Below are positions 7,763-64,000 of a stretch of DNA of 64,000 nt, piece by piece. The notes beneath the pieces are model-generated. The model did no database searches. It had not been told where the DNA came from and worked only from the letters and a program-made list of their open reading frames with translations. The stretch comes from Escherichia phage vB_EcoP_SU10: sequence record NC_027395.1, one strand, 5' to 3'. A program made the translations under genes and the position numbers. The first letter of the stretch is position 1; every line of letters starts with the position of its first letter.

Positions 7763-7774
7763 CAAGGAGATATT

Positions 7775-8557
7775 ATGGCAATTAATATGGGTATTGAAGA
7801 ACTAGACCCAATGGTTCAACAGGCTTCAAAGAAGTATGGGATTCCTGCTGCTTTGATTCATGCTGTAATCCAAAGAGAGTCTAGTGGTCGTCCTACAGTA
7901 GCCTCTGGAACTGGTCCTGTAGGTTTAATGCAGATCAGTAAAGGGTTGGCTAAAGACTACGGTTACAAACTAGAAGACAGACTTGACCCAGCAAAGAATA
8001 TTGATATGGGTGCTCGTTATATTCGAGATAACTTAAAGGCTTTTAATGGTGATGTTAAGAAAGCAATGGTTGGTTATTCAGAAGGTATTGGTGGAGCTAA
8101 GCAAATGTTCGCTGGTAAAAAGGGATTTACACCTCAAGCCCTTGACTCAATGAACAACAAACACTTTCTTCCTTTCTATGGTGATGCAGCTTCTCAGATT
8201 GCTAACCCTGTTGGAGCTTTGCAAGCTGTTCAACCAGTCAACCAGTTTAGTTCTGACTTACTAGACAGAGAGAAAGCCGCACAAGCTCCAACTCAGGCAG
8301 AGATTGCTGCTTCTAAGACAGGTGCTTTAGGCGGAAATCCAGTAGAGTTTTACTCTGATGAAGTGCAGGAAGGCGAAAACCAGAAACCTCAACAGAACTT
8401 TGGTAATGCAGTATTAGGGGTAGCTGCTATGCTTGCTGGTAAACCTCCCACTTCTCAAACAGTTCAGAGGGCAAGTGCACCACATGCAGCAGGTTCTCAG
8501 TACAGTCCACAAACACAAGCAGTGCTCAGACGTTTGGCTAGCATTGGTGTAAAGTAA
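7775..8557 (+). CDS. virion-associated lytic transglycosylase (SLT domain)
   Basis: QRESSGRPTVASGTGPVGLMQIS matches the catalytic E-S ... GLMQ motif of soluble lytic transglycosylases; RBS AAGGAGA. Confidence 0.7.
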   Translation: MAINMGIEELDPMVQQASKKYGIPAALIHAVIQRESSGRPTVASGTGPVGLMQISKGLAKDYGYKLEDRLDPAKNIDMGARYIRDNLKAFNGDVKKAMVGYSEGIGGAKQMFAGKKGFTPQALDSMNNKHFLPFYGDAASQIANPVGALQAVQPVNQFSSDLLDREKAAQAPTQAEIAASKTGALGGNPVEFYSDEVQEGENQKPQQNFGNAVLGVAAMLAGKPPTSQTVQRASAPHAAGSQYSPQTQAVLRRLASIGVK

Positions 8558-53328: not shown

Positions 53329-53404
53329 TGGTGCGCCCTACAGGACTCGAACCTGTAACCAATAGCTTAGAAGGCTACTGCTCTATCCATTGAGCTAAGA
53401 GCGC
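53329..53404 (-). tRNA. tRNA-Arg (anticodon UCU)
   Basis: Hand-folded cloverleaf: acceptor GCGCTCT/AGGGCGC, D-arm GCTC-AATGGATA-GAGC, anticodon loop CTTCTAA, T-arm ACAGG-TTCGAGT-CCTGT, encoded CCA. Confidence 0.8.
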
Positions 53405-55936: not shown

Positions 55937-56233
55937 TCAATTATCACTGTTAATCTCCTGCTGCTTAGCAATAGCCACTCGCAAGTCTTCATTAGCACGA
56001 GCAAGGCGCAACACTTCATGATTGAGGTTCTGAAGACGTTTGTTTCTGTCTTCAACTTGCATAATAAGATCGTTGAGTGTTACTTTAACTTTCTCATTAT
56101 ACATCTCATCCACTCGGACTAGAGATTTATACATTCTTTCCCAGCTTGCTGCTTTGTTTCTTAGGACAATAAATCCTAGAACGCTGATAGTTAAACAGCT
56201 TACAAAAAGGAATTTATATATTTCTAAAGTCAT
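55937..56233 (-). CDS. membrane-anchored coiled-coil protein
   Basis: N-terminal TM FLFVSCLTISVLGFIVL then heptad-like helix. Confidence 0.4.
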   Translation of the reverse strand: MTLEIYKFLFVSCLTISVLGFIVLRNKAASWERMYKSLVRVDEMYNEKVKVTLNDLIMQVEDRNKRLQNLNHEVLRLARANEDLRVAIAKQQEINSDN

Positions 56234-56432
56234 ATTATTTACCCTTTATCAGAGATTAAAAGTAATATTATTTAAGTAAGTTATGTTTAGTAAACTTATT
56301 TTCTAAGAAATTTTCAAAGGGTCTATATACAGAGCATTACCCATAGTTCCAGAATACTACCATCTTTTTCAATAAATTTACTAAGTGATTGGTTTATAAA
56401 GGAATTTAGTTTGTCAAATCTGGCACTAGTGA

Positions 56433-56822
56433 TTATTCCCTAGAGCTATTATCGAACACTAAATCACCACAATACATAGGATTGGCATACCATTTTGGCA
56501 CCCCTTCGCTCTTACTCTGAAAGTAAGTCCCACTGTACAGCGGAACATAATTCTTCTTAAGGGCACGTTTAGCCAGCCGCTCGCTTTCTCCAATAGCTTG
56601 CTTAGTCATCGGATTTTTATCACGAATCAGCTTTACATAACGTTTATAAGGTTTCTCCTGTTTTAATAGTACCGGAATCCACTCAAACTGGTTCTTTTGT
56701 CTTATCACCTGTTCAGCGGTCAGTTTTCGTTGGGCCATTCTATTTATCACGGTATCCGCAACTAAAGCCTTACATGCGGTTGGCTGATTCCCTGCCTCAT
56801 AATAAATAGTCAATGTCAACAT
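56433..56822 (-). CDS. cell-wall hydrolase-like protein (SleB-type domain)
   Basis: IYYEAGNQPTACKALVADTVINRMA resembles the YAEARGE ... VA-VV-NR motif of SleB-type hydrolases. Confidence 0.45.
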   Translation of the reverse strand: MLTLTIYYEAGNQPTACKALVADTVINRMAQRKLTAEQVIRQKNQFEWIPVLLKQEKPYKRYVKLIRDKNPMTKQAIGESERLAKRALKKNYVPLYSGTYFQSKSEGVPKWYANPMYCGDLVFDNSSRE

Positions 56823-56871
56823 TAGCTGGGCCGTTGTTATCAGAACTTGCTACCTCCTGTTTTACGGGCAT

Positions 56872-56897
56872 AAAAAAGCCCCAGCCGTAGCCGGGGC
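56872..56897 (-). terminator. intrinsic terminator
   Basis: GCCCC ... GGGGC hairpin then TTTTTT on - strand. Confidence 0.45.
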
Positions 56898-56958
56898 AAA
56901 CCTGAAAGCAACACATGACCGTTGCTATAAATACACTCGCAAATGCACTTATAGCAAC

Positions 56959-56981
56959 GCAAAAAGCCGCTCAAAGGCGGC
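56959..56981 (-). terminator. intrinsic terminator
   Basis: AGCCGC-CTTTGA-GCGGCT then TTTTG on - strand. Confidence 0.45.
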
Positions 56982-57063
56982 TATGCGGAAGCTTCAAATG
57001 GGGAGAGGGCACGACGCTACAGAAAGAGCGTCATAGTACTAAAAGAGGGGGGCTATATTCCTA

Positions 57064-57507
57064 CTACTTAACCCTTGCCTCTTTGATGGGGTCAATGTAT
57101 TTTTCAACGCCCCACTTGTGTTTACTATCTGCGTAGAAAACATCAGGTGCACACTGGCTTGTCTTAGGGAAAGCCTGCGGGTCTTTCGTGCTACCCTTAA
57201 ACTTCTGTTTACCACGGGTGCGACCATTACAGAAGATTTCTAACTTCTTCTCTTCTTCTGTTTTAGCGCCCCCGCTCTGTAACAAAGAACGTTTATGATC
57301 AGCTAACAACAACGCATCAGCACGATGGACACGATGACCTACACGTTTTGCCACACTGGAAGGGACATGGGATTCAGCCTCAGCTTTTGCAGCACGACGT
57401 TTTAAACTACGCTTACTGACGTGATTAGTTGCCTTCGGCTTCTCTTTCTCCAGTTCAGAGATAGAAAAACAACGCCCGCCCTTCATGCTGATTTTAGATT
57501 TAGCCAC
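57064..57507 (-). CDS. basic early protein
   Basis: 147 aa, Lys/Arg-rich. Confidence 0.45.
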   Translation of the reverse strand: MAKSKISMKGGRCFSISELEKEKPKATNHVSKRSLKRRAAKAEAESHVPSSVAKRVGHRVHRADALLLADHKRSLLQSGGAKTEEEKKLEIFCNGRTRGKQKFKGSTKDPQAFPKTSQCAPDVFYADSKHKWGVEKYIDPIKEARVK

Positions 57508-57576
57508 AATCTTATTCCTTTTAGTGATAAGTTATATCGGGCAAGCCCATCAAGGTGATAGGCTTGAACAAACAAC

Positions 57577-57786
57577 TTAATCAAGTAAACCGAATGACTT
57601 CCAACTGCGTAGCAGGGTTGTACCATCATCCATAGTTACACATAATTTTAGTAGTTTCTTATTGGCACTACTCACCGTTGTAATTCGTCCGGTTGTACAT
57701 TTACCTTTATTGCTATAAAGATACACTACACGACGACCTAACAAACGAGAGGGAGCTTTCTTAAACTCTGAAATATTAGTGATCAT
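57577..57786 (-). CDS. hypothetical protein
   Basis: 69-aa ORF. Confidence 0.35.
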   Translation of the reverse strand: MITNISEFKKAPSRLLGRRVVYLYSNKGKCTTGRITTVSSANKKLLKLCVTMDDGTTLLRSWKSFGLLD

Positions 57787-58007
57787 AATGCTTGATACCT
57801 TTGAATATGTTCAATACGGGTGGATTGAGCAAATGACGCTTTAACAGCCATTTTCCTAACTTCTTCTTTACGTTGGTTAGTGTGTACAGTATCCCAATGA
57901 CTGTTATCACGTTGGCGCTGTAATATCTTACTACATTTGCGATGGTTTCCCGTGCTGCGATGTTTCTCACAAATAGGACATTTGCCAAAATTATTACTGA
58001 ATATCAT
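57783..58007 (-). CDS. zinc-finger-like small protein
   Basis: GKCPICEKH ... H ... C. Confidence 0.35.
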   Translation of the reverse strand: MIFSNNFGKCPICEKHRSTGNHRKCSKILQRQRDNSHWDTVHTNQRKEEVRKMAVKASFAQSTRIEHIQRYQAL

Positions 58008-58231
58008 TTTCTCAATCCCAACTTTCTTAAGATACGGCCTAACGTTGTTTCTTGCGTGATAATATAGCTGATCGCTTCACGTTCCGATGTTTCAATCTTC
58101 ATTGGTGACGGATACCATTCACCGGTAATAACACATTTACATTCAACGCCATACTTTTTAGATAGGCGGTAATGTTGACCGTTGACAAGATTCCTATAAA
58201 TCGTGGTATGCGTAATTAACATGATCATCAC
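58004..58231 (-). CDS. hypothetical protein
   Basis: 75-aa ORF. Confidence 0.35.
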   Translation of the reverse strand: MMIMLITHTTIYRNLVNGQHYRLSKKYGVECKCVITGEWYPSPMKIETSEREAISYIITQETTLGRILRKLGLRK

Positions 58232-58333
58232 CTTTGATTAAATTCTTTGATTAATGCACTGAATCAATGCACTGATAAAAGAAAAGGCGCTACCCATTAA
58301 GATAGCGCCTTATGTTTATTCAAATTGTCTTAC

Positions 58334-59242
58334 TTATGCTGCCTGACGTGCTGCCATAATCTCAGCCGCTTTACGCAATACTTCTTCTTCTTCTGCTTTC
58401 GCCGCTTGTTCGGTACGGGTAGCAACCGTTGAAGAGATACGACCGCGCAGACTTTCTAACTTCTCCTGCATAGCTGCAACAGTCTTTTCCATTTCATCAG
58501 CGTATGAATCGAGTGATTCTAATTCCTTGCTTGATGCGTTCATCAGGTAGTTATCAGAGATCGCTACCGTTGAGGCCGTGACTTTCTTGATGAGTGAATC
58601 AAAGGACTTTTTAACCTTGCCTACTTCTTCACTTAAGGCAATGGTGTTATCACTAGTTGCGCCGTTGCGCTCATCAGCCAGTAATTTGGCTTCAATACGG
58701 ATTGCATTCAAGCGTTCAACCAAAGCGTAAATATCTTGGTTAAAATCTTCCTTGTTTTTCGCCGGAATTTGCAGGTGTGCCGCCACGTTGTCATTACAAC
58801 CCTTGTAAAAGTTAGGATTATCGACTTCAATTTCACGGCCTAAAGCAAAGTTTTCGAAAGCGTTTGACCAGCGAGCGCGGTTTTGTTCCATTTTGGTTTT
58901 AATTTGCGCTTCTTTCGCGTCTTCTTTAGCTTTCGCCTCACCTTCCAGATTAATCCACTTTTTACGACCATTTGCCGCATCGGTGTTAAACTTGATAGGA
59001 GTTAAGAAAGTGATCGAGGTAGCAATAACATCCATATCACGGAAACGTTCGGTTAACAGGAAGTCAACCGCCGCCTGCAATACATCTAACTTCTTACCAT
59101 TACTGCGGAAGTGCTGTAAGTGCCCTAACAGGAAATTAGAAACATCTTGTTTGATCGCCGCGTTATTGCTACGAATGTTGTTAGCCAGTGCATTAAAACC
59201 AGATTCGTTAACCAGAGTAAAAACTTTAGCCATGATATTCAC
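58334..59242 (-). CDS. early protein, unknown function
   Basis: 302 aa, first gene downstream of three sigma70-like promoters; RBS AAGGTGA. Confidence 0.5.
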   Translation of the reverse strand: MNIMAKVFTLVNESGFNALANNIRSNNAAIKQDVSNFLLGHLQHFRSNGKKLDVLQAAVDFLLTERFRDMDVIATSITFLTPIKFNTDAANGRKKWINLEGEAKAKEDAKEAQIKTKMEQNRARWSNAFENFALGREIEVDNPNFYKGCNDNVAAHLQIPAKNKEDFNQDIYALVERLNAIRIEAKLLADERNGATSDNTIALSEEVGKVKKSFDSLIKKVTASTVAISDNYLMNASSKELESLDSYADEMEKTVAAMQEKLESLRGRISSTVATRTEQAAKAEEEEVLRKAAEIMAARQAA

Positions 59243-60155
59243 CTTTCAATTGTAAGGGCGCTATTGCCCCGCTCTCTATGAGCTTGTTTAAGTCACTATT
59301 AACTTATCTCTAACCACTCACTTTTTAAGTAGTTACAGGTAAGCGAGGCGGTCTTATCAGGAGTTAACCTTGCCGCCTCCTTATCCGTGATGTTTCATCT
59401 GGTATCTTTAATTAGTCGCTATAAACGAAGCCGACCTGATAGCGATGATCAATCATCACAATAAGGCAGTGCGTCCGACTCTAATTAGTTACGTTTATTG
59501 TAACCGTCGGCAATATCGTCTACTTTGCTTTCGCTCTCGCCTATCCTTTTGTATCAACTCTCAATCACTAGCCATCGCCCACAACGGGATGCTATTGTGA
59601 AAGAGTCATTGACCGTCTAATGTTCTGACGTTTTATATCTTTCGGCAAGTTTACTACATAAACCGACTATGTACTTTCATCTTGTGATGAATCTCAAGCC
59701 GTTCACATCGTAAACGTTCACACTAAACCTTATTGTTAAATAGCAATTTGCCACTTTTTAACCACTCCCCGCCGCTCTCAATTGAGCGTTAATTCTTCGG
59801 GCTTGCCTACCCTGATTAACTTCTTTCACTGTAGCGCCTTGTTAGCGATGACCGCCGCTACCCTTAACCGTGGGCGATTAGCTTAAGTCTTTGCGTACAC
59901 TCAATGAATCCGTTTATCAGTGGTGACGTTTCCAGCAAGGGATTGTAAGATTGTTTTCTCTGATAGTTTAGAGAATCTTACACCGTTTTATCTGGTATGT
60001 TATCTGATGGTTATTATCATCTAACATATTCAACCGATATAGGAGAATGTTTAAATTATTAAAGAGCGGTAAATCTGTCAGTGTGCTTTCTCACACTACG
60101 CAACTGTTAGCCGTTGTTACGCTTTCCTTAAGCGGTGATTTGCTTAAGTGTGCTC

Positions 60156-60184
60156 ATTATGAATCATGTTGTTTTCGCTGTCAA
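60156..60184 (-). promoter_or_regulatory. sigma70-type early promoter
   Basis: - strand TTGACA, 17-nt spacer, CATAAT, with upstream A tract. Confidence 0.55.
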
Positions 60185-60313
60185 CCACTTTTTAATCTTT
60201 TTTCGTCGTTCCCGCTATTGGGAGGATATATCAATCAGCTTTATTTGATTGAAGACTAAGCGGTGATGCTTATCTTATGATTCATATTGTTAAAGAGCGG
60301 TTACTACATTTAC

Positions 60314-60341
60314 AGCTTAACACATCGTGTTAGCTTGTCAA
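60314..60341 (-). promoter_or_regulatory. sigma70-type promoter candidate (weak -10)
   Basis: - strand TTGACA, 16 nt, TAAGCT. Confidence 0.3.
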
Positions 60342-60639
60342 CTCTTTTTATCATCTTCTTTTAATTCCTTTCCCTTATCTCGCGTGAATCTATGCGAAAG
60401 GGCAAGATGATAAGTCTGATTTGTCTTTTAGGAATCTAGTGCGCTTTCAAGCATTGACCATTTGAAAGTATCGAACAAATGAGGCTTATTTTGTTGCTCA
60501 TCGTCCGCCTGTTCACGTATGAATCAGGAATCAATTCTAGTGGTCAACTAAGCGCCTTATAGTAATGACGTTCCCGCCACCTGTAAGACAAATCATATTT
60601 TTAAAGAGCTGGATGTTTCACGTCATCGCTGACTATGCT

Positions 60640-60668
60640 CACTATATATCAGGCTGTTTTCGGTGTCA
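60640..60668 (-). promoter_or_regulatory. sigma70-type early promoter
   Basis: - strand TTGACA, 17-nt spacer, TATAGT, upstream AAAAAGAG. Confidence 0.6.
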
Positions 60669-61074
60669 ATACTCTTTTTAAGAATATTTTCACTTTCTAG
60701 CCTGATTTTTAAAGAGCGTAGCACTTTCATTGTGCGTCTTACCGTCGGTATTCCTACCGCTCCCCGTTGAAGCCTTTTACCGTGATGCTAATCACCTATC
60801 GAGGAGTTTTTACTACTTGTTGTTACTTACTGCTTACTACGGGATTCATATTACTATACAGGAAAACCCTGTCAATACCCTTTTTTCAAATTATTTTATA
60901 TCTCACTGTTTTATAAAGGAATTTATTTTAGAGATGACAGGAACTACAAAGAAATCAGAAGAGAGAGGAACGGGAGCGCGTGATACATCATAGGAAACAG
61001 CCTGTAAAGCAATAATAAGCGGCCTATAACGCATCACAACGAGCTAAAAGGGAGTAAGGTATACAATCACCTTA

Positions 61075-61102
61075 GAAAAGAAAAAAGCCTCATAGTGAGG
61101 CT
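61075..61102 (-). terminator. intrinsic terminator
   Basis: AGCCTCA-CTA-TGAGGCT then TTTTTTCTTTT on - strand. Confidence 0.55.
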
Positions 61103-61179
61103 TATAGGAAGGATTTAAAGCATTAGATACATTATGACCATAGGCATGACTACGGCACAATACAGGAGAAAGATTAAGC

Positions 61180-61545
61180 CTATGGATTTACACATTGCCC
61201 TAAACCGGATGCTATTTCGTTCATAGATTCATCAAAGAGTGTTAACGATGAGCGCATCAAGTGATCGATCGTGATTTGTTTACCAGTGGTTTCATTCACC
61301 AACAGAATAGTTTTATCATATGATTGTACATGATCGAAATCGTTTACATGTAAAATAATAACTTTAGGTGACTTTTTACCAGTTTCATAGTCTTCTATAA
61401 GATAGGTACACTGTAAGCCGTCAATCGTAGCAGGGGAAAACGTTGCAGCCTTTACGCTACCCATAGATGACAACAGGACACCTAACAGAAGAACGACCAG
61501 AAAGAAGCCTACGAACACTTTTACCACAAATTTGATAATACCCAT
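61180..61545 (-). CDS. secreted/membrane protein
   Basis: N-terminal hydrophobic leader FVGFFLVVLLLGVLL. Confidence 0.4.
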   Translation of the reverse strand: MGIIKFVVKVFVGFFLVVLLLGVLLSSMGSVKAATFSPATIDGLQCTYLIEDYETGKKSPKVIILHVNDFDHVQSYDKTILLVNETTGKQITIDHLMRSSLTLFDESMNEIASGLGQCVNP

Positions 61546-61641
61546 GAAAATAACACCTATAGTCAGAGAATGTAAGAATAAAGCATATCAGCGACGAATA
61601 ACGCCACTGTAACAACGAACAAGCAACGCCAGAAATAATCA

Positions 61642-61920
61642 TTAATCATCATTGCTATCCTCGCCAAAGAATGCTACGCTAATTTGTTCCACTTCTTCCA
61701 GTGACAGAAGAATCCCACGCTGGGCTAAATACTTCCCAACAGTTAGATAATCTTGCACTAAGCAGACAATAGGAAAGCGTATATTTTGTATCTCACCTTT
61801 GGAAAGAAAAGACAAATAGCCAACGTCGATTGATTCATCAAAGGATAGTGTAACGCCACCGTAATTATGCGTATCAATTAACGCAATAGTTTCATTTCCC
61901 ATAACGTTTCCAATCCTCAT
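61642..61920 (-). CDS. hypothetical early protein
   Basis: 92-aa ORF. Confidence 0.35.
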   Translation of the reverse strand: MRIGNVMGNETIALIDTHNYGGVTLSFDESIDVGYLSFLSKGEIQNIRFPIVCLVQDYLTVGKYLAQRGILLSLEEVEQISVAFFGEDSNDD

Positions 61921-62122
61921 AATGATTAACTAGTGCCTGATAATCGTCAGATGATAACTCACCGCCTAAATAGGCAACGGTTATGCGTGCTTTGTATTCT
62001 GACAAACTGCATAGCGCGGAAGCGGATAACCTGCTTTCGCCATAACATCCTAGCACTTCAACGATACAACCGTTTAAAGATACTGATTTATTAATCACGA
62101 TATGGTTAGCCATTAATATCAT
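61892..62122 (-). CDS. hypothetical early protein
   Basis: 76-aa ORF. Confidence 0.3.
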   Translation of the reverse strand: MILMANHIVINKSVSLNGCIVEVLGCYGESRLSASALCSLSEYKARITVAYLGGELSSDDYQALVNHYEDWKRYGK

Positions 62123-62369
62123 CCTTAATTAGCCCATGATTGAGCAGGTTAGCCAGTGATAAGCCACCGTCAAAATAAACAGAACGAAAATCAGCGCGGG
62201 TAATTTCAAGGCCAGCAAACTTCAACCAGTTTTTGGCTGATTGAAAATCCATTTTGCAAAAAGTAATGATAGGAACAGTAAGCTGACCATCGAGCGTATT
62301 AAACATGATAGCGGTATCGCCAATAAAACAAGAAAAGCCACTAGATAATCTAATTTCTTTAATAGCCAT
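62106..62369 (-). CDS. hypothetical early protein
   Basis: 87-aa ORF. Confidence 0.35.
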   Translation of the reverse strand: MAIKEIRLSSGFSCFIGDTAIMFNTLDGQLTVPIITFCKMDFQSAKNWLKFAGLEITRADFRSVYFDGGLSLANLLNHGLIKDDING

Positions 62370-62405
62370 TATTTATACTCCCAAAAGATTGGCAAATTAA
62401 TTTAT

Positions 62406-63278
62406 TCACTTACTAGCCTTAATACAGTTGGCTAAATTAACGTGAACGGTATAAACAGCATTATCCGCGTTATTGTAAACAGTCGTGGCGATCATCGACT
62501 CATTGATCGGGCCATAGCTAACAAGGTTAGTAACGGCTTTAACGTCTTCATAACGTTGTACAGTGCCGAAAGTCACCATATCCGCATCGTTATCAGTACG
62601 CTTAAGCACTAAATCACTGTTAGGCTGATTATCTAACGTTTTAGATTGAAAGAGAACGCCATCATTAGTAACGTTGCTAAATTTCATCTTTAGCACGATA
62701 TTATTGCCGTCACTATCCGCACCGTTGCAAATCATCCAACCCTTATTGATGGAACTAGCGAAAACATCAGCGGCATCAGTTGCAGGAGTAGGACTAGCGA
62801 TAGCCTTATCAGAAAGAGATGTGACCAGTGCACTAACACCAATAGCTGCAACCAGTGCATAACTTGCCAGATTAACAGACTTCATAATCTTACTTGCAAC
62901 AGTAGGCTTGATTGGCTGTTTCTTGTTTTTCTTATTCCATGCTTCAACCATGACAGACAAGCGGGATAATTCAGCTTTCACATCGCGGCATGACTCAGGC
63001 CAATCCTTCTGATTCCAGCTATCTAAATTTGCTTGAATGTAGCAATTAATAGCGTCCTGCATATCGGTAAAACCGTTCTCTTTGAACGTGCTTTCATCTT
63101 CACACTGTAAAGCGTTCGCAGTAGAGTTAATGATCAAGCAAGCCAGCATTACAGAGTTTTTGAATCCTTTACGTGCACTTTCGTTTTCCATCCACGCATC
63201 AGGACTACCAACGGTTAAGCCTAAAGAGGAAAGGCTTTCGTTTGCTTTGTTCAAGTGGTTAATTGCTACTTTAGACAT
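62406..63278 (-). CDS. early membrane protein
   Basis: 290 aa, central TM helix; sigma70-like promoter ~50 nt upstream. Confidence 0.45.
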   Translation of the reverse strand: MSKVAINHLNKANESLSSLGLTVGSPDAWMENESARKGFKNSVMLACLIINSTANALQCEDESTFKENGFTDMQDAINCYIQANLDSWNQKDWPESCRDVKAELSRLSVMVEAWNKKNKKQPIKPTVASKIMKSVNLASYALVAAIGVSALVTSLSDKAIASPTPATDAADVFASSINKGWMICNGADSDGNNIVLKMKFSNVTNDGVLFQSKTLDNQPNSDLVLKRTDNDADMVTFGTVQRYEDVKAVTNLVSYGPINESMIATTVYNNADNAVYTVHVNLANCIKASK

Positions 63279-63322
63279 TTGATATTCCTTCTGGTTGATG
63301 AAAACTACAAACTACACTCGCA

Positions 63323-63350
63323 ACTATATATTAAAGGAAAAGGCTGTCAA
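63323..63350 (-). promoter_or_regulatory. sigma70-type early promoter
   Basis: - strand TTGACA, 16 nt, TATAGT. Confidence 0.5.
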
Positions 63351-64000
63351 CCATTTATTTTCTAACTTTCTTGCATCCTACTGAAAACTAAAGGAATTTA
63401 ATTTACTAAACTTTCTATACTCAGGGTATCAGCTTACTAGCTATTGTTACTTTATAACACCAATTCTACGGGCAGCAGACCAACAGACCAGGACACGGGG
63501 AGCATACAACCGCAGGACAGACCACGGGGAAATATAGCAAGATAGTGCGGTAATAATATACCACTTAAATAATTGTATAACTCAAACATCAAAGACGTTC
63601 GTACTTCGTACTCACAAAGGCACGCTGAAAAAGAAAGTAATAAAAGAAACAATTAAAAGAAATACAATCATCCACTTAATTAATACATATATCATTATTG
63701 CACTCATAATCATTACTATTGAAACTATTATCAACGTAACTATGGAGAGCTGAACGGTAACAATACGGTATTATTAGACCTGTTATTATCACGCCTTAAC
63801 AGAGTATAGCCTTTCTCTCACTCTTTAAAGGGGTACTAAATAAACGGGTAGTTAATGAATAGGATGGTATACACGGGGAAATAACTACGGGGAGTAGGCA
63901 CGGGGAAAGGTGGAACGTTGAAAGGGAAGGTAAAGGCATTGCCAATAACCCTTTTTTAAATGAGGACTCCCCTTTTTTAGGAAACACGCGGGAAGCGGCT

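Follow-up and report, generated by a model that had tools for sequence, protein, structure and literature searches.

Tandem promoters and rrn-type boxA elements precede a large conserved structured RNA in a putative early transcription unit of Escherichia phage vB_EcoP_SU10

We describe a spacer in the early region of Escherichia phage vB_EcoP_SU10, analysed in a stretch of 64,000 nucleotides (nt) of sequence record NC_027395.1 that we refer to throughout as the window. The window is a Kuravirus (phiEco32-like) genome; positions 59000-61200 are 94% identical to Escherichia phage phiEco32 (NC_010324, 72553-74748) and match 96 records assigned to Kuravirus, Nieuwekanaalvirus and Suseptimavirus. 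The spacer is about 1.9 kb long, lies between the leftwards-transcribed homologues of phi32_125 (61180-61545) and phi32_124, and is empty in the RefSeq annotation. The SU10 genome paper places three sigma-70 promoters in it, "like phage phiEco32", and its Table S2 lists exactly the three sequences at 60669-60641, 60341-60314 and 60184-60156. To these we add a fourth predicted promoter, an array of boxA elements of the type found in ribosomal RNA (rRNA) operons (rrn), and a structured RNA of about 800 nt upstream of gene 124, and we consider it likely that the region is an early transcription unit built like an rRNA operon. The three promoters are already published; the boxA sites and the large structured RNA are new to the searchable literature, the boxA array being a well-supported new variant of a known mechanism and the structured RNA a new RNA family. 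Full-text literature searches gave nothing relevant that ties boxA, Nus factors or antitermination to phiEco32, Kuravirus or Gordonclarkvirinae, with the primary phiEco32 papers (Savalia 2008, Pavlova 2012), which may mention boxA, lying outside their coverage; the BASEL paper makes no mention of non-coding RNA or antitermination.

Four predicted sigma-70 promoters, P1 to P4, are arranged in tandem on the minus strand, 150-330 nt apart, each behind an A-rich tract and with no terminators between them (Table 1). A preliminary description of this DNA had recognised P2, P3 and P4 as three sigma70-like promoters that follow A tracts, and both observations are borne out, the three sites being consensus matches that are conserved in relatives and published; P1 lies outside the interval it covered and was missed. 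Promoter-like sites are no more frequent in 56000-64000 than in shuffled sequence (16 found against 20.5 +/- 4.8), so the case for these promoters rests on their near-consensus quality, their conservation in relatives and their publication. Distant relatives, too, have a promoter about 85-110 nt ahead of the last boxA. Judged by promoter sequence, this is probably the most heavily transcribed early locus. Another early promoter (63350-63323) has its open reading frame (ORF) directly downstream, without a boxA.

Each of the four promoters is followed on the transcribed strand by the motif GCTCTTTAA[A/C/T]AAT, 10-125 nt downstream of a near-consensus promoter (the starts are predicted), and we designate these elements boxA1 to boxA4. 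The 12-mer GCTCTTTAAnAA is present in four exact minus-strand copies within 660 nt (at 60717, 60609, 60298 and 60067) and nowhere else in the window, and the 11-nt sequence GYTCTTTAANA, which is the published gamma-proteobacterial boxA consensus, has five matches in the window against 0.52 expected. The repeated CCACT(C) motif noted in the preliminary description is real, with TTAAAAAGTG occurring three times on the minus strand and only here in the 64 kb (0.42 expected), one copy (60195-60186) being inside the A-rich tract upstream of P4, but the main repeat of the region is GCTCTTTAAnAA.

The context of these elements is that of an rrn-type boxA. A hairpin lies 3-13 nt 5' of most of them, and boxA itself is unpaired in the minimum free energy (MFE) folds of all four promoter-proximal nascent transcripts and essentially unpaired in the consensus structure, save for two pairs of an unsupported helix. 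The E. coli rrnH sequence (TGCTCTTTAACAATTTATCAG) also reads hairpin, then AACTGCTCTTTAACAATTTATCAGACAATCTGTGTGGGC, and one metagenomic relative (GCTCTTTAACAATTTATCAG) is identical to rrnH over 20 nt. Among 17 GenBank relatives there are four to six boxA copies per spacer, in which about 20 differing upstream contexts all end in the invariant motif; across more than 30 relatives the motif is unchanged while its flanks swap like cassettes. The hairpin ahead of boxA4 has compensatory variants (AGUGUG/CACACU, AACGUG/CACGUU, GAAGUG/CACUUC and GAGGUG/CACCUC), and a hairpin is found at this place, before the last boxA, in all distant relatives. Ten metagenomic relatives, whose gp124 is 46-70% identical, have one to three consensus boxAs, every copy being on the transcribed strand ahead of the gp124-like gene; within these loci (up to about 10 kb) there is no boxA on the other strand and none in flanking coding DNA. 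On their contigs, which reach 100 kb, the gp124-like gene is preceded by 1.4-3.4 kb in which no genes are called. The elements thus agree with an rrn-type boxA in consensus match, placement in the nascent RNA, single-strandedness and a boxB-like hairpin on the 5' side, and differ from a lambda-type nut site in that the hairpins lie 5' of boxA and vary in sequence between modules. A fifth, boxA-like element inside the structured RNA (Table 1) has A in place of C4, a position where mutation inactivates boxA; close relatives have it unchanged and distant ones in recognisable form. Its 3' half is in the helix (H22) that closes domain II, and the element may be a relic or a regulated boxA.

The relatives differ between P1 and P4 by whole cassettes with borders at boxA; in EP335, for example, the boxA1 context is joined to the sequence downstream of boxA2. 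Several relatives lack the cassette that follows boxA2 (60595-60417), which is found also in an unrelated coliphage of 65.7 kb, PJNS034 (PP391266; locus L027); PJNS034 has promoter-boxA modules of its own (L027:2373-3320) in a 1.8-kb divergent intergenic region. This cassette is present or absent as a precise unit and behaves like a mobile or exchangeable element. In phage T7 (NC_001604) a perfect boxA of the rrn type, GACGCTCTTTAACAATCTGG, lies ahead of gene 0.3 and about 65 nt past the start of promoter A3 (T7 nt ~809-829; positions 460-480 of locus L103), and we found no open-access paper that discusses it. The likeness to the clustered early promoters of T7 that the preliminary description had drawn is strengthened, as the T7 leader after A1-A3 holds the same boxA.

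When IMG/VR was scanned for pairs of boxAs at a spacing of 195-225 nt, 57 stretches emerged. Roughly a third of them are chance matches in ORFs or unrelated tandem repeats, and about twenty are ORF-poor boxA arrays in other phage types, many with consensus promoters; in these arrays the first ORF begins 65-270 nt past the last boxA (606 nt in L088). Modules of boxA in tandem, in many of which a sigma-70 promoter and an upstream hairpin are present, were noted in L061, L046, L050, L068, L088, L054, L066, L085, L059 and L062, and the phages with such modules in gene-poor early regions represent several unrelated lineages, with contigs of 16-106 kb. A 70.6-kb viral contig (L047, IMGVR_UViG_641509421_000001, reverse 7773-8536) has seven identical tandem repeats of 109 nt, each with GCTCTTTAAAAAT, in a part that is free of ORFs; it was set aside among the unrelated tandem repeats and is a repeat of another type. 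The modules of T7, PJNS034 and the IMG/VR lineages indicate that boxA in early leaders is common to T7-like and other virulent phages; the layout of one boxA per promoter together with an RNA of about 800 nt is particular to the phiEco32 clade.

The GCTCTTTAA motif could also be read as a phage-specific signal, such as a phage protein site or a processing site, or as a recombination junction between cassettes, rather than as a Nus site. Cassette borders do coincide with the motif, as in EP335, and boxC is absent. We consider such a reading improbable, since the motif with its 3' flank is identical to the host rrnH boxA over up to 20 nt, is non-palindromic, strictly strand-specific and within RNA, and recurs in the unrelated T7, PJNS034 and several IMG/VR lineages, which have the host in common and not their proteins.

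The leader from the predicted P4 start (about 60149) to the ATG of gene 124 is 916 nt, in line with the approximately 900 nt previously given for it. On the transcribed strand the longest ORF in 60900-59243 is 35 amino acids (aa) and spans a promoter, and the longest within the leader is 25 codons and has no Shine-Dalgarno sequence. The earlier statement that the region has no ORF of 61 aa or more therefore holds for the transcribed strand but not for the plus strand, where there is a 70-aa ORF (60047-60259); its counterparts in relatives are 0-62 aa long, and it is not a gene. Variable columns are distributed over the three codon phases as 125/115/114 in the leader and 66/42/205 in gene 124, so that the leader has no 3-nt periodicity. 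On average the leader is 89.8% identical to that of the window, compared with 73.0% for third and 94.9% for first and second codon positions of gene 124; by this comparison the leader is slower-evolving than the third codon positions of its neighbour and is under purifying selection. The C/G composition, taken as an indicator of Rho sites, is unremarkable. Coding sequences (CDSs) are annotated in the spacer in some GenBank records, including Paul gp116 (L002:900-1076), E20-1 ORF114 (L003:860-1243), MN05_00120 (L007:1191-1361) and NJ01_006, called 'cathepsin L-like' (L011:1436-1603). These CDSs overlie the promoter and RNA region, vary between genomes and in several cases are on the non-transcribed strand; they are probably spurious.

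That the leader yields small peptides, as the preliminary description had suggested, or short RNAs from individual promoters, is extremely improbable. The spacing of the promoters makes short promoter-proximal RNAs conceivable, and the roughly 180-nt cassette at 60595-60417 forms a structured module in itself, but the promoters are not separated by terminators. As to peptides, the leader has no conserved ORF with a start codon and Shine-Dalgarno sequence, its ORFs (25 codons or fewer) vary in length among close relatives, and substitutions are without codon phase.

By comparative sequence analysis the approximately 800 nt between the last boxA and gene 124 (60055-59255) are a conserved multi-domain structured RNA. 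The last boxA is 833-842 nt ahead of the ATG in 17 of the 18 distinct close sequences; in distant sequences this spacing is 870-971 nt. The leader of the window folds with an MFE of -254 kcal/mol (z = -8.0 relative to dinucleotide shuffles). For the 18 close sequences (alignment A1) RNAalifold predicts 256 pairs. Both sides change in 70 of these, compared with 29.4 +/- 3.1 in column shuffles (none of 500 reaches 70) and 5-13 when the pairing partners are slid by 1-3 columns; in an independent count 98.7% of cells are paired. Adding the distant sequences (33 in all, aligned with L-INS-i) gives 253 pairs with 90% of cells paired (36-44% when slid) and 171 compensatory pairs (83-103 when slid). 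A covariance model of the 3' module (R1, 59457-59288) has one match per sequence in 23 sequences (E values of 5.5e-45 to 3.9e-07), each directly upstream of a gp124-like gene, and in a covariance-model alignment of relatives down to 46% identity (A7) 36 of 48 pairs are compensatory, compared with 18 +/- 2.3 in shuffles and 10-16 when slid. Because A7 is fitted to the model it leans towards structure, a bias that the MAFFT-based counts do not have. Many invariant G-U pairs identify the transcribed strand as the folded one. Covariation, stability and purifying selection without a coding signal are thus found together, as expected of a structured functional RNA. The small RNA or regulatory structure proposed in the preliminary description was right in spirit and far too modest, as the RNA has two domains, extends over about 800 nt and shows massive covariation.

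None of the 4227 models of Rfam 15, which include ROOL, GOLLD, OLE, group I/II introns and riboswitches, matches 58000-64000 at E <= 1, and at E <= 10 the interval 59150-60950 gives only six noise matches of 15-20 bits; no homologue of the RNA was found in 5,426 E. coli genomes. We note a weak R1 match in PJNS034 (L027:3157-3305; 23 bits, E about 0.007 with rough calibration) that ends 16 nt before the first gene and could reflect either remote homology to the RNA or chance.

The spacer might alternatively act as DNA, as a transcription-activated replication origin (compare the T7 primary origin behind promoters), or specify an RNA II-like primer. It is a long, gene-free region of conserved length behind strong promoters and, to our knowledge, the replication origin of these phages is unmapped, which counts in favour of this alternative. 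The conserved G-U pairs and strand-specific covariation, however, point to an RNA fold and not to duplex DNA, and no obvious iterons or DnaA boxes are apparent on reading the sequence; such an element is very improbable, with an RNA II-like primer being formally possible.

Table 1. Features of the promoter-RNA-gene 124 region of SU10 and its borders, in the direction of transcription (window coordinates)
Feature	Coordinates	Strand	Description
Intrinsic terminator, end of upstream early operon (homologues of genes 128-125)	61085..61103	-	8-bp stem, T-run; in SU10 Table S2
P1	60848..60875	-	TTGACA-N16-TAATAT, 10/12, behind A-rich tract; kept in phiEco32, Paul, E20-1, EP335 and L035
Hairpin and boxA1	60705..60735	-	Hairpin GCACAATGAAAGTGC, then boxA1 GCTCTTTAAAAAT (60717-60705)
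P2	60641..60669	-	TTGACA-N17-TATAGT, 11/12 in promoter scan; SU10 Table S2
boxA2	60597..60609	-	GCTCTTTAAAAAT, about 25 nt past predicted P2 start
Optional RNA cassette	60417..60595	-	About 180 nt; 11-bp closing stem; alignment A4: 54 pairs, 7 compensatory, two of them in the PJNS034 closing stem
P3	60314..60341	-	TTGACA-N16-TGtTAAGCT, extended -10, read directly from sequence; SU10 Table S2; conserved in relatives
boxA3	60286..60298	-	GCTCTTTAACAAT, about 10 nt past predicted P3 start
P4, including A-rich upstream tract	60156..60195	-	TTGACA-N17-CATAAT at 60184-60156, 11/12; SU10 Table S2
boxB-like hairpin	60079..60098	-	UAGUGUG-AGAAAG-CACACUG, 11 nt 5' of boxA4; compensatory at 3/7 pairs (A1 columns 62-82)
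boxA4	60055..60067	-	GCTCTTTAATAAT; in many relatives GCTCTTTAACAATTTA, identical to E. coli rrnH over 16 nt
Domain I	59757..60055	-	About 300 nt; long-range closing helix, A1 columns 106-119/394-407; helices 6-20, many compensatory pairs
boxA-like fifth element and hairpin H21	59733..59756	-	H21 (59756-59738) holds second TTAAAAAGTG copy; boxA-like GCTATTTAACAA at 59744-59733
Domain II	59458..59736	-	About 280 nt; 10-bp closing helix H22, ACAAUAAGGU with GCCUUAUUGU; helices 22-35, of which 27, 29, 30, 31 and 32 are rich in compensatory pairs
3' module	59288..59457	-	Five or six hairpins; third TTAAAAAGTG copy in hairpin loop 59328-59319
Two terminal hairpins	59255..59283	-	GCUCAUAGAGAGC, GGGGCAAUAGCGCCCU; helices 43 and 44, one compensatory pair each; just 5' of ribosome-binding site
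Shine-Dalgarno and gene 124 homologue	58334..59247	-	AAAGGTG 59247-59241, ATG 59233, stop 58334; 299 aa; PHROG 13018 'unknown'
Intrinsic terminator after gene 124	58284..58311	-	12-bp stem, UUUUCUUUU; conserved; annotated terminator in SU7

The RNA and gene 124 are syntenic in all 33 loci examined. The first sizeable ORF had been placed at 59242; the GTG there is a valid mechanical ORF start, but relatives annotate the ATG at 59233 behind AAAGGTG. Metagenome assemblies contain proteins 46-70% identical to gp124. A metagenome scan for gp124 relatives added only close ones, and the distant ones were obtained through exact-protein look-ups. Pfam has only sub-threshold, coiled-coil-like matches to gp124, and its AlphaFold2 model (predicted local distance difference test score 74) has no significant fold match in the PDB. 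The terminator that follows gene 124 is probably the end of the promoter-RNA-gene 124 unit. This conserved terminator lies directly after gene 124, and no clear consensus promoter was seen upstream of gene 123.

The position of the RNA next to gene 124 raises the possibility that it is only a cis-acting 5' untranslated region (UTR), serving mRNA stability or the gating of gp124 translation, for example by autoregulation, with no function in trans and with boxA simply preventing polarity. The strict synteny, the lack of a terminator or obvious processing site between the RNA and the gene, and the hairpins that abut the Shine-Dalgarno sequence are consistent with this, and translation can be repressed by a boxA beside a start codon, suhB being an example (Baniulyte 2017). 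Known bacterial cis-regulators are, however, far smaller than this RNA, which extends over about 800 nt and has more than 40 helices and two closed domains. In addition, pairing of the boxA flank with the Shine-Dalgarno region is not conserved, and four strong promoters imply a very high RNA output for one protein of 299 aa. We regard a purely cis-acting UTR as possible, and are inclined to doubt it.

In the rRNA operon-like unit that we propose, E. coli sigma-70 RNA polymerase would initiate at P1-P4 and, 10-125 nt past each start, the nascent RNA would expose a hairpin and then a single-stranded rrn-type boxA. NusB-S10 bound to boxA, with NusA, NusG and SuhB, would give a Rho-resistant and probably faster elongation complex, which could escape premature termination by Rho, cross more than 900 nt of untranslated RNA (about 1.6 kb at most, counted from P1) and reach gene 124. 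The last 800 nt or so would be either a stable non-coding RNA in itself or a very elaborate 5' UTR that acts together with gp124. This scheme draws on the findings that boxA is necessary and sufficient for the rrn antitermination complex (NusB, S10, NusA, NusG, SuhB and S4), that this complex is Rho-resistant and is also an RNA-folding chaperone, and that long untranslated transcripts are terminated by Rho when no boxA shields them, such protection being established for rRNA and for arrays of clustered regularly interspaced short palindromic repeats (CRISPR) (Stringer 2020).

Several points weigh against the proposal. We infer Nus-factor binding (including that of NusB/S10), Rho resistance, the transcription starts and any function of the RNA from sequence. 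In a comparison with rrnH, boxC (UCUGUGUGGG, 18-19 nt downstream) follows none of the boxAs; boxC is not required for complex formation, and boxB is dispensable in rrn. A leader-trailer helix that would pair the boxA4 flank with the Shine-Dalgarno region (60074-60064 with 59247-59237) was suggested by RNAalifold and was rejected, as it has no covariation and is broken in distant relatives. Complexes of the rrn type are poor at reading through intrinsic terminators, so boxA leaves the passage of the terminator at 58311-58284 into genes 123 onwards, and with it the transcription of the downstream early genes, unexplained. Highly structured RNA is a poor Rho substrate, and boxA might therefore matter mainly for the less structured, promoter-proximal parts. 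Lastly, gp124 has given no functional clue.

As to what the RNA does, it may be an elaborate 5' UTR, or a stable RNA or ribonucleoprotein (RNP) with gp124; a Nus-factor sink, or an aid to transcription-driven genome entry as in T7, is speculation. The locus could in addition be a phage mimic of an rRNA operon whose product is a new class of large structured RNA that acts in trans during host take-over, possibly as an RNP with gp124 or as a decoy that, along with the four to six high-affinity boxAs on every abundant transcript, sequesters NusB/S10/SuhB or other proteins of the host or its defences that bind RNA. Both the fold and the boxA evidence are compatible with this reading of the locus, which we nonetheless judge unlikely.

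Two further observations concern other genes of the window. Both RefSeq and PHROG 13168 apply the label 'terminase' to the 121-aa phi32_125 homologue, which has a long, hydrophobic, signal-like N-terminus (MGIIKFVVKVFVGFFLVVLLLGVLLSSMGSVKA); the label looks doubtful. The sole transfer RNA (tRNA) gene found in a scan of the window for tRNA and transfer-messenger RNA is a tRNA-Arg (anticodon TCT; 53329-53404, minus strand).

The phages concerned belong to Gordonclarkvirinae, a common, therapeutically used and little-studied subfamily that is reported to be unusually resistant to defence systems. The tandem promoter-boxA modules found here, in T7, in PJNS034 and in other IMG/VR lineages suggest a general N-independent use of Nus factors by virulent phages, an early strategy by which those infecting enterobacteria would hijack host rRNA antitermination without an N-like protein.

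Among known systems, the E. coli rrn leader is alike in its tandem strong sigma-70 promoters behind A-rich tracts, in a hairpin followed within a few nt by GCTCTTTAACAAT(TTA...), which is identical to rrnH over 16-20 nt in relatives, in having more than one boxA per transcription unit, and in its long, highly structured untranslated product. The phage locus differs in having neither boxC nor a supported leader-trailer helix, in its four to six boxAs, one per promoter, and in an RNA that is unrelated to rRNA and shares its unit with a protein gene. The early region of T7 (A1, A2, A3, boxA leader, RNase III site R0.3 and gene 0.3) similarly has three strong host promoters near the genome end that point inward, an rrn-type boxA in an untranslated leader, and the first early gene directly downstream. 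In T7 the three promoters are followed by a single boxA and the leader is about 175 nt long, whereas here there is a hairpin and a boxA for each promoter and a conserved RNA of about 800 nt.

The leaders of CRISPR arrays and of suhB (Stringer 2020; Baniulyte 2017) likewise have a consensus boxA early in a long untranslated transcript that would be a Rho target; the array described here is phage-borne, has multiple tandem copies, and precedes a folded RNA instead of a repeat array. The lambda nut site (boxA-boxB, with N protein) shares with it a host NusB/S10 site in early phage transcripts, here predicted from sequence, but has boxA followed by boxB, whereas here the hairpin precedes boxA, as in rrn. 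The lambda boxA is the shorter CGCUCUUA, and the sequence in these phages is the full rrn consensus. Since the hairpins differ between modules, a single N-like reader of boxB is unlikely; no N-like protein was identified, and no systematic search for one was made.

The structured RNA is reminiscent of ROOL, GOLLD, OLE, HEARO and raiA, which are also several hundred nt long and multi-domain with strong covariation, ROOL and GOLLD being often phage- or prophage-borne. Few RNAs longer than 500 nt have such a density of covariation, and earlier new classes have each been worth structural and functional study. Unlike these, the RNA described here matches none of the 4227 Rfam models beyond noise even at E <= 10, has boxA on its 5' side, is fixed beside one protein gene, and lies in what is predicted to be the most strongly promoted early locus of a virulent phage.

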